Assembly: GCA_965197475.1 (NCBI GenBank)
Contig: CBDANF010000003.1
Coordinates: 1,280,001 to 1,344,000, forward strand
Direction of reading: 5' to 3'
DNA from: Candidatus Poribacteria bacterium
GTDB taxonomy: Bacteria; Poribacteria; WGA-4E; WGA-3G
DNA: 64,000 nucleotides
This document shows positions 15,513 to 16,217 of this stretch, one piece after another; within the stretch, counting starts at the first letter, position 1, and each line of letters opens with the position of its first letter. Below the pieces are notes generated by a model that worked only from the letters and a program-made list of their open reading frames with translations, had not been told where the DNA came from and ran no database searches. The translations under genes and the position numbers were made by a program.

Positions 15513-16217
15513 CTAAAAAGGCAAGCTGAGTTGCTGCGGCGTTGGTTCGGTTGGCAAAAGTTGTTTATTACCCGTTAGAAGTGCAAGGTAATAATCCTTA
15601 TCGTTAAATTTCTGTTCATCAATCAGTCCATTTTTGGATAACGAAACAAATGACGCAGCAGCGCGCGCTTGGCAATTCAACGAGCGATTTGGATTGAAGA
15701 CAATGTCTGAGAAACCTTGAAACACTTCAAGTTCTTGCATCAGATCTTTCTTTTTCTGATACAATGCAGTGATATATAACCAATCGTAAAAAGCCGTTTT
15801 AGGTTCAATAGGAAAATCTTCTCCGCAGAAGTTAAAAGTGATCAACTCTCCCGAATTTTGCAAACGCTCGTCTGTTTTCGCGGATCGGCTTGAAACCGAA
15901 TATAAATTGCGGTAAGGACCTCCATTTTCAAATACCTTACTTCCTTGATACGCACACTCCACACTCATTTTCTGACCACTTGGTGTTTCCAACGGTAGAT
16001 TAAAAGCACTCAACGATACCCCAAGCCGTGATGCCGATTTTCGCGATATTTCCAAAATCGGAGCGATTCCCTGCTTTTCGGCAGCGTCATGTAAAGATAA
16101 AATGGTTTTTTGCATCTGCGATTTTGCAAAACCGGGATGCCATTTGAATTCTATATCTACCGTTTCAACATACGGAAATCTGTTGAAATCAGGGGTAAAA
16201 ATGGGACGGTTTGCCAT
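15513..16217 (-). CDS. darG: DarT1-associated NADAR family antitoxin (DarG1)
   Basis: MANRPIF, FKWHPGFAKSQ, LEISRKS..LGVSLSAFNL, SVECAYQGSKVF, TAFYDWLY, FSDIVFNP..SLNCQAR; RBS ggag overlaps darT stop. Confidence 0.88.
   Translation of the reverse strand: MANRPIFTPDFNRFPYVETVDIEFKWHPGFAKSQMQKTILSLHDAAEKQGIAPILEISRKSASRLGVSLSAFNLPLETPSGQKMSVECAYQGSKVFENGGPYRNLYSVSSRSAKTDERLQNSGELITFNFCGEDFPIEPKTAFYDWLYITALYQKKKDLMQELEVFQGFSDIVFNPNRSLNCQARAAASFVSLSKNGLIDEQKFNDKDYYLALLTGNKQLLPTEPTPQQLSLPF

Follow-up and report, generated by a model that had tools for sequence, protein, structure and literature searches.

A NADAR antitoxin from a DarT1 operon of Candidatus Poribacteria ends in a candidate beta-clamp-binding motif

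We analyzed a stretch of 64,000 nucleotides from a Candidatus Poribacteria bacterium (assembly GCA_965197475.1, contig CBDANF010000003.1, positions 1,280,001 to 1,344,000; hereafter the window), with a focus on a toxin-antitoxin operon encoded on its minus strand. The genome comprises 5.7 Mb on three contigs, has a GC content of 43% and is 92.7% complete. The locus is a DarT1-NADAR operon of the DarTG1 type, a family which is itself already known, and the genome contains a single DarT and a single NADAR-DarT1 copy. A toxin open reading frame (ORF) of 288 aa, counted from an internal ATG (16229..17095, minus strand), is followed on the same strand by the antitoxin ORF of 234 aa (15513..16217, minus strand), which ends in ...GNKQLLPTEPTPQQLSLPF. 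The distance from the toxin stop to the antitoxin ATG is 11 nt, and the ATG is preceded by AGGAG. Our central subject is the tail at the antitoxin's C-terminus, which resembles the peptides that bind to DnaN, the beta clamp.

Residues 2 to 209 of the antitoxin match the NADAR-DarT1 antitoxin family PF22397 with an E-value of 7.5e-86 (287.4 bits against a cut-off of 27). The closest solved relative is the Geobacter lovleyi NADAR enzyme (8bat, E 3.7e-56), while a PADLOC scan returned no family for the antitoxin, for which no model exists there. E87, K94, K114, and D171 are aligned to E88, K95, K115, and D171 of the E. coli homolog, and E87, K94, and D171 are invariant across an alignment of 41 antitoxin rows. 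The available passages of PMC11543638 assign catalysis to E88, K95, and D171 (E. coli C7 numbering) and describe K115 as a conserved residue that catalysis does not require. They further state that DarT1 ADP-ribosylates guanine in single-stranded DNA and that the NADAR enzyme removes this mark. As judged by profile, catalytic residues, and position beside DarT1, the protein is a DarT1-associated NADAR antitoxin. A preliminary description of this DNA had assigned the same identity, which is borne out by the PF22397 match and the adjoining DarT1 gene.

In an AlphaFold2 (AF2) model computed from the 41-row alignment, the glycohydrolase domain (residues 1 to 215; 15573..16217, minus strand) reaches a mean predicted local distance difference test (pLDDT) value of 89.5. 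This confident domain is followed by a tail of 19 residues (216 to 234), modeled as a coil with pLDDT values of 56–58 and not docked on the NADAR domain. The tail is composed of a flexible linker (residues 216 to 228, TGNKQLLPTEPTPQ; 15534..15572, minus strand) and a candidate beta-clamp-binding motif, QLSLPF (residues 229 to 234; 15516..15533, minus strand), which directly precedes the stop codon TAG (15513–15515, minus strand). The reverse complement of 15513–15536 reads CAG CAA CTC AGC TTG CCT TTT TAG, i.e., QQLSLPF and a stop. Together with the ORF of 234 aa, this confirms the ending given in the preliminary description, which had also called the linker Pro-rich. A linker is indeed present, but its enrichment in Pro is only mild, with three Pro in LLPTEPTP and a further one within the motif.

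According to the passages of PMC11139829 available to us, canonical clamp-binding motifs follow the patterns Q-phi-x-[L/M]-[F/L] and Q-phi-x-[L/M]-x-[F/L], the forms of highest affinity are QLxLF and QLxLxF, and the motifs often reside in C-terminal tails. Pentamer and hexamer formats are described there as equivalent in clamp affinity, and the Hda peptide PAQLSLPLYL is listed with a KD of 0.38 uM for the clamp (see also the passages of PMC9690074). The last six residues of the antitoxin fit the published high-affinity consensus QLxLxF, so that the clamp-motif likeness put forward beforehand holds. We compared this ending with a crude set of 5503 ORFs of at least 120 aa, derived from the whole 5.7-Mb genome. 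A QL.L.[LF] ending is found in 1/5503 ORFs, namely the antitoxin. QLxLF or QLxLxF within the last 10 residues is found in two, the antitoxin and a DprA-family DNA-processing protein (G000:C3:2451537-2452508, L124), which ends in …EQLLLFELE.

Conservation of the tail was studied from close to distant relatives. Among the best 120 of 4569 database matches, which are 76–100% identical to the antitoxin, 114 carry the motif in their last 12 residues. These comprise 69 terminal hexamers (QLSLPF, QLTLPL, QLNFPF), 20 terminal pentamers (QQLSLF, QQISLF), 20 hexamers followed by one residue, and five proteins with the motif a few residues further in. Six of the 120 lack the motif, two of them with QLSLF in front of a longer extension and two with the degenerate forms QPTLQF and QDTFQF. 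In the 115 Gln-anchored tails the Gln is invariant, position 2 is Leu in 109 cases and position 4 is either Leu or Phe, while the linker positions -4, -3, and -1 from the motif Gln are variable, with an entropy of 2.1–3.0 bits. Thus, the class of the motif is constant while its letters and the linker vary, which indicates that selection preserves the class rather than particular letters. Along this line, the switching between pentamers and hexamers corresponds to the tolerance of the clamp pocket reported in the passages of PMC11139829.

For distant homologs, a HMMER scan of 50%-identity representatives was evaluated for the best 150 of 1392 matches (41–67% identical), 88 of which are stand-alone proteins of 200–260 aa. 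A loose pattern, defined as Qxx[LIMF][FLIW] or its hexamer counterpart in the last 10 residues, is present in 42 of these 88. When the last 25 residues of the same proteins were shuffled 500 times, 2.3 proteins matched on average and never more than 8; the genome background amounts to 73/5503 ORFs. The loose motif depends on length: it occurs in 41 of the 68 proteins longer than 221 aa versus one of the 20 that end with the domain. The tail conservation among antitoxin homologs, a check proposed in the preliminary description, is accordingly found in close as well as in tailed distant relatives. In the 33 stand-alone tails with a hydrophobic final pair, Gln is located exactly at position -5 in 26, compared to a Gln frequency of 4.5% in the linkers. 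Judged by these sequence counts, the QLSLPF ending of the antitoxin is not a chance match.

Genome loci with named organisms give a view of the taxonomic distribution. Of 589 candidate stretches, 563 encode a relative; the 80 best were retained, and the loose motif is present in 44 of them. Near-misses beyond these 44 loci include QPDLPF, QLNLPFEDG…, QEGLGFN, and QARLV. Motif carriers are distributed over Poribacteria, Chloroflexota (Anaerolineae, Caldilineaceae), Latescibacterota, Planctomycetota (Gemmataceae), Geobacterales, many Pseudomonadota, Patescibacteria, Acidobacteriota, and Bacillota. Two loci of Methanosarcinales, archaea that have no beta clamp, encode proteins of 404–407 aa without the motif. 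The antitoxins of two chromosomal DarT1-NADAR operons of E. coli, as annotated in RefSeq, end in …NYTIQKTLI and …NYSIQHILI. As these also conform to Qxx-L-I, the idea of a clamp-binding tail is testable in the established E. coli system. The terminal motif is furthermore retained in single-chain DarT-NADAR fusions (P0274, …QQLSLF; locus L005).

The genome encodes two tandem dnaN paralogs of 372 and 367 aa with a mutual identity of about 75% (G000:C3:724399-726851, L001 and L002); contigs of some relatives contain two or three dnaN copies. The first paralog (372 aa, alignment of 42 rows) was co-folded with residues 200 to 234 of the antitoxin (alignment of 41 rows). The pair reached a score of 0.68 (0.66, 0.68, and 0.68 in the individual runs), compared to 0.01 for the best of three controls, with at least 75% of the contacts in common between runs and a partner pLDDT of at least 56. 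The corresponding mark is reached by 116/157 solved complexes and 2/215 mismatched pairs, counts which are only rough for custom alignments. The predicted interface connects antitoxin residues 226 to 234 with DnaN residues 170–175, 240–245, 273–278, 316–318, 342–344, and 358–364, and the tightest pairs are formed by Q229 and L230 with M362 and R363. These DnaN segments are presumably the counterparts of the E. coli pocket T172-L177, P242-V247, N320, V344-S346, and V360-R365. Peptide-DnaN co-folding had been suggested in the preliminary description as a check, and the model supports docking of residues 226 to 234 in the usual cleft between domains II and III of DnaN.

Members of the same motif class are present in the certain clamp clients of this genome, DnaE (GQMNLFED at 911) and MutS (LQMALFTP at 853). 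These two served as internal references instead of the motif at the C-terminus of Pol IV, since the genome, at its completeness of 92.7%, yielded no Y-family polymerase (PF00817). In addition, two neighboring AlkB-type 2OG-Fe(II) oxygenases (G000:C3:2348612-2349262, L085, and C3:2350367-2351008, L086) start with MEQLSLF. Relatives of these oxygenases were identified in 20 of 31 genomes searched. Among 37 oxygenase matches obtained by tblastn, 26 start with M-x-Q-[LIM]-x-[LIMF]-F; the remainder mostly start with QQSLF or QPSLF. From their termini, enzymes of direct base-damage reversal appear to belong to the regular clients of the clamp in this lineage.

Taking these findings together, we consider it fairly likely that the antitoxin tail is a genuine beta-clamp-binding motif which tethers the NADAR glycohydrolase to DNA-loaded DnaN, near ADP-ribosyl-guanine at replication. 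Clamp binding by the tail, as predicted from motif, conservation, disorder, and co-folding, is well supported by computation, and this route probably brings the antidote to DNA that is being replicated. In mechanistic terms, QLSLPF would dock in the hydrophobic cleft of DnaN and would thereby tether the glycohydrolase to loaded clamps, in the manner of polymerases, MutS/MutL, ligase, and Hda. Single-stranded template occurs mainly at forks and gaps, where a marked guanine would stall the replicative polymerase, and the stalled polymerase would leave a clamp at the primer end, i.e., at the primer-template junction. A clamp-bound NADAR domain on its flexible linker of 13 residues would be held next to the lesion and could erase it, upon which synthesis would resume; such action may take place at stalled as well as at ongoing replication. 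Since a NADAR domain on the clamp would sit beside the lesion, we read the tail as a device that brings the eraser to the site at which the mark is harmful.

Several observations weigh against this interpretation. The loose pattern was our own choice, and the strict published regular expression is matched by 62 of the 120 close homologs and 13 of the 88 stand-alone representatives (shuffle mean 0.38, maximum 2), with 15/5503 ORFs in the genome. Deviant tails are numerous, with Phe at position 4 (QLNFPF), Ile as last residue, or Gly, Gln, or Glu at position 2 (QGSLF, QQSLF). On a quick FastTree phylogeny of the domain, for which 136 of 151 rows were kept and 15 were dropped for lack of the anchor motif or short length, presence of the motif requires 29 changes, compared to 35.8 on average and no fewer than 28 with shuffled labels. 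The motif is thus scattered on the tree: either it is labile, with frequent gain and loss, or the pattern misses variants. The tail is absent from roughly half of the stand-alone members of the family and from each of the 20 short ones, and the NADAR enzymes of E. coli C7 and G. lovleyi work as antitoxins and in vitro, as stated in the available passages of PMC11543638; consequently, the tail is dispensable for catalysis. The co-fold covers one of the two tandem DnaN paralogs. Because many clamp-peptide complexes have been solved, its pass may be owed to memory and shows likeness only. Finally, the toxin gene is split by a frameshift in this assembly, and hence the system may be decaying in this strain.

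The toxin matches PF14487 with 80.2 bits (cut-off 22.5), the PADLOC DarT model with an E-value of 2.3e-11, and E. coli C7 DarT1 (8baq) with an E-value of 1.7e-36 over residues 46 to 236, where the Glu of PQAEVLVF is located at the position of the crystallized E152A variant. E202 is invariant in the DarT alignment. The layout starts with a WD40 remnant (residues 8 to 32, the end of a WD40 blade), followed by the ADP-ribosyltransferase domain at about residues 45 to 255; the AF2 model is confident over residues 41 to 255 approximately. Upstream, an overlapping WD40-repeat ORF of 298 aa (17044..17940, minus strand; PF00400, E 6.4e-22) represents the N-terminal part of a WD40-DarT1 fusion gene. 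The two ORFs are separated by a frameshift at 17066..17072 (minus strand; ...SPDGCTL followed by ASGCRDGVVLLWDV), as read from the DNA and from contigs of public sequencing runs. In the homologs P0272 (479 aa) and P0273 (482 aa) the fusion is intact, and each of them, a single WD40-DarT1 protein, aligns to both ORFs in two frames. Run X1, probably the source sample, is identical to the window at this site and shares the 1-nt break, whereas contigs of run X3 (another sample of the same study) and run X4 (another study) have one extra letter behind 17071, which restores one open frame. Thus, the fused WD40-DarT1 gene exists in close relatives. The internal ATG behind the 1-nt frameshift still yields a complete DarT domain.

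Downstream of this domain, the toxin has an acidic disordered tail (16232..16318, minus strand) which ends in DDFDGDIPF (last nine codons 16232-16258) and resembles the C-terminal tip of SSB, the protein that binds single-stranded DNA. In full, the ending is EELDDFDGDIPF / …NDEELDDFDGDIPF, acidic and with Gly rather than Asp at position -4. This tail, the frameshift within the WD40-DarT1 fusion, and the Tudor-type antitoxins addressed below had been overlooked in the preliminary description. Toxin residues 276 to 288 have pLDDT values below 50, and the acidic tail is not docked on the domain in the AF2 model, a result which is neutral with regard to self-inhibition by the tail. A D[IL]PF ending occurs in 2/5503 ORFs of the genome, the toxin and the single SSB (…SSTEDDIPF). 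Among 119 DarT homologs, including the toxin of the window itself and leaving a 120th listed row (P0134) outside the count, 59 end in IPF, mostly as DDDIPF behind a variable acidic linker. Three further homologs end in ILF and three in IPL, and some contain a second, internal DIPF. DarT1 proteins with the same ending originate from a cyanobacterium (Pantanalinema), one member each of Anaerolineaceae and Aminobacteriaceae, and a Candidatus Eisenbacteria genome, while E. coli DarT1 (208 aa) has no such acidic tail. DDDIPF is the conserved SSB C-terminal hexapeptide for partner binding, as described in the abstract of PMC5872125. A Pfam scan gave no SSB match in the toxin ORF, and the tip is carried by a DarT domain, not by an OB-fold. 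The toxin tail thus resembles an SSB tip in its residues; the toxin is not an SSB. Three other DarT relatives have an N-terminal SSB OB-fold instead, and a fusion to RNase HII occurs in one. Ankyrin-DarT, RNase HII-DarT, and DarT-NADAR fusions were also seen among DarT relatives.

A different appendage was found on part of the antitoxins. In 15 of the 150 representatives (278–349 aa), a terminal module of about 50 residues takes the place of the peptide. A profile of these 15 members (P0160, P0181, P0186, P0191, P0205, P0207, P0209, P0217, P0230, P0238, P0239, P0244, P0247, P0251, and P0260) identifies the module, in a search against PDB, as the C-terminal Tudor domain of UvrD/PcrA, with E-values of 3.2e-5 for residues 670 to 740 of 4c2t, 5.5e-5 for 7egt, and about 7e-4 for 6yi2 and 7egs. 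Pfam alone reports Tudor only below threshold (20–22 bits, cut-off 23.9) in 5 of 55 long antitoxin forms. The C-terminal Tudor domain of UvrD/PcrA binds RNA polymerase. Further long antitoxin forms have HTH, AbiU2, DUF4365, DUF5655, or guanylate kinase domains as fusion partners.

From their appendages, both enzymes look as if they were addressed to machines that expose single-stranded DNA. Since about half of the stand-alone antitoxins have the peptide, others a Tudor domain, and many toxins an SSB tip or OB-fold, the same logic may apply family-wide. We tentatively suggest, as a possibility of low probability, that DarT1 systems are spatially wired, the toxin by an SSB label and the antitoxin by the label of a clamp client or of UvrD/PcrA, and that they are regulated by co-localization. 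The enzymes that write and erase guanine ADP-ribosylation would then come together exclusively on the replication and transcription machines of the host. Any replicon or state of infection in which single-stranded DNA is exposed in the absence of host clamps, or in which clamps or SSB partners are titrated, would uncouple the two and lead to arrest of the DNA concerned. Control would be exerted by co-localization rather than by binding or proteolysis. In 54 loci with both ends available, the SSB tip of the toxin and the motif of the antitoxin are not correlated (2 with both, 7 with the tip only, 25 with the motif only, 20 with neither).

A related explanation assigns a defense role to the tether. 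The preliminary description had proposed that clamp binding confines the antitoxin to host replisomes, so that the mark is steadily removed at host forks while phage DNA from clamp-independent replication stays ADP-ribosylated, in the sense of a spatial filter between self and non-self. This model presupposes clamp binding, adds a defense logic to it, and draws on the same motif evidence; furthermore, the SSB-tip-like tail of the toxin and the SSB-OB-DarT fusions suggest that the toxin, too, is addressed to hubs of single-stranded DNA, so that the relative placement of the two could matter. DarTG1 reportedly protects E. coli against T-even-like phages, which bring their own clamp. However, when the antitoxin was compared by tblastn with 50,697 phage records, nothing matched at an E-value of 1e-5, inspection of the window genes revealed no sign of a defense island next to the operon, and the toxin tip and antitoxin motif are uncorrelated in the 54 loci. 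Moreover, the antitoxin enzyme is diffusible and its tail flexible, and members without the tail also neutralize their toxins. We therefore regard such a filter as rather unlikely.

It is improbable that the hydrophobic C-terminal peptide acts as a degradation or quality-control tag, e.g., for Lon or Clp protease, which would render the antitoxin short-lived and thereby free the toxin once synthesis ceases. The peptide is exposed, terminal, and hydrophobic, and many antitoxins are labile, as is established for type II systems. However, the fixed Gln spacing (26/33 at -5) and the alternation of pentamers and hexamers are traits of clamp motifs, and we know of no degron class with these features. 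The same peptide also occurs at the termini of other DNA enzymes of this genome, the AlkB-type oxygenases and the DprA-family protein.

Even less probable is an interaction of the tail with the DarT1 toxin, or its folding back onto the NADAR domain, resulting in direct neutralization or self-regulation. A precedent is given by DarG, which neutralizes DarT2 partly by binding, through its C-terminal domain, and the available passages of PMC11543638 raise a possible contact of K115 of the E. coli antitoxin with DarT1. The single-chain DarT-NADAR fusions still end in the motif, however, which makes a tail serving as tether to the toxin unlikely, and the motif is independent of toxin architecture and toxin tail. 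Fold-back is disfavored by the AF2 model, which leaves the tail as an undocked coil of low confidence. Chance resemblance without function is highly improbable and was excluded, as the counts of 114/120 close and 41/68 tailed distant homologs face a shuffled mean of 2.3 in 88, even though 73/5503 ORFs fit the loose pattern in their last 10 residues.

Compared with known systems, the operon is closest to DarT1-NADAR of E. coli C7 and Geobacter lovleyi (passages of PMC11543638; 8baq, 8bat), with which it shares both families and the order from toxin to antitoxin. The catalytic residues of both enzymes are conserved, and the NADAR domain is 48% identical to that of an E. coli chromosomal homolog. 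In contrast to the C7 system, the toxin is a WD40 fusion (frameshifted in the assembly) with an acidic SSB-tip-like tail, and in contrast to both systems the antitoxin tail has a near-consensus clamp motif. With the beta-clamp clients treated in the passages of PMC11139829 (Pol II, Pol IV, Pol III alpha, Hda, MutS, and MutL), the antitoxin has in common the terminal disordered Q-L-x-L-x-F peptide, the interchangeable pentamer and hexamer formats, and the same predicted cleft. The carrier, however, is an antitoxin that strips DNA bases of ADP-ribose, a class of client for which no description was found, and its binding is predicted. SocAB of Caulobacter, as presented in the passages of PMC9690074, is likewise a toxin-antitoxin system with one component that engages the DnaN cleft. 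There, the toxin SocB binds and blocks the clamp, whereas in the present system the clamp would serve the antitoxin as a platform and the target of the toxin is DNA rather than the clamp. The toxin ending …DFDGDIPF and the SSB ending …STEDDIPF of this genome are alike with respect to the tip described in the abstract of PMC5872125, but the carrier is an ADP-ribosyltransferase and not an OB-fold tetramer. The UvrD/PcrA Tudor domain (4c2t, 7egt, 6yi2) is matched by 15/150 antitoxin representatives, not by the antitoxin of the window.

While the operon type is known, the clamp peptide on the antitoxin, the SSB tip on the toxin, and the Tudor antitoxins were not found in the literature searched. 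Our search of this literature returned no link of NADAR, DarT, or DarG to a clamp-binding motif, none of DarT to an SSB tail, and no UvrD-type Tudor domain on NADAR antitoxins. The passages available from PMC11543638, PMC11257639, PMC9967889, PMC11125620, and PMC12170906 do not contain these features according to a term search, and those of PMC11543638 and of three further papers mention neither the clamp or DnaN nor a C-terminal tail of NADAR. The findings bear on how DarTG1 is restrained in uninfected cells and released on infection, where the NADAR antitoxin is thought to be purely enzymatic. If our interpretation of the tail is correct, the clamp peptide adds a further level of control, by directing the antitoxin to polymerase machines, and enzymes reversing base ADP-ribosylation form a new class of beta-clamp clients. 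A Tudor domain on antitoxins and an SSB tip or OB-fold on toxins would likewise add a targeting layer.

The surroundings of the operon provide a few further observations. A promoter-like site (TTGAGA-17-TATAAT with TG, 11/12 matches in a consensus scan) is located upstream of the operon at 18000..18028 (minus strand); as the total of such sites in the region does not exceed that of shuffled sequences, it stays a candidate. By eye, the genes at 10566-14481 (plus strand) look typical of a sponge symbiont and include a 540-aa protein of a kind common in Planctomycetes-like genomes and a 634-aa leucine-rich-repeat protein with terminal dockerin-like repeats. Public runs containing this stretch include sponge metagenomes. 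Contigs of run X7, a sponge metatranscriptome library, are identical to the window over 15400-15971 and 16117-16288 and cover the 3' half of the antitoxin gene including the tail as well as the toxin-antitoxin junction, which gives a hint of expression of the operon, with the reservation that RNA libraries can contain DNA.

Peptides of similar appearance were also seen in other proteins of the genome. A type I restriction S subunit (C2:1256801-1258210, L089) ends in …QQLPLPLD, and a 316-aa protein without Pfam match (C1:23142-24092, L087) has QQLSLF eight residues before its end. A 494-aa protein, again without Pfam match (C3:1434564-1436048, L090), contains an internal GQLSLFED, and a TPR protein (C3:3949614-3950843, L088) starts with MGGTKQLSLFDDD.

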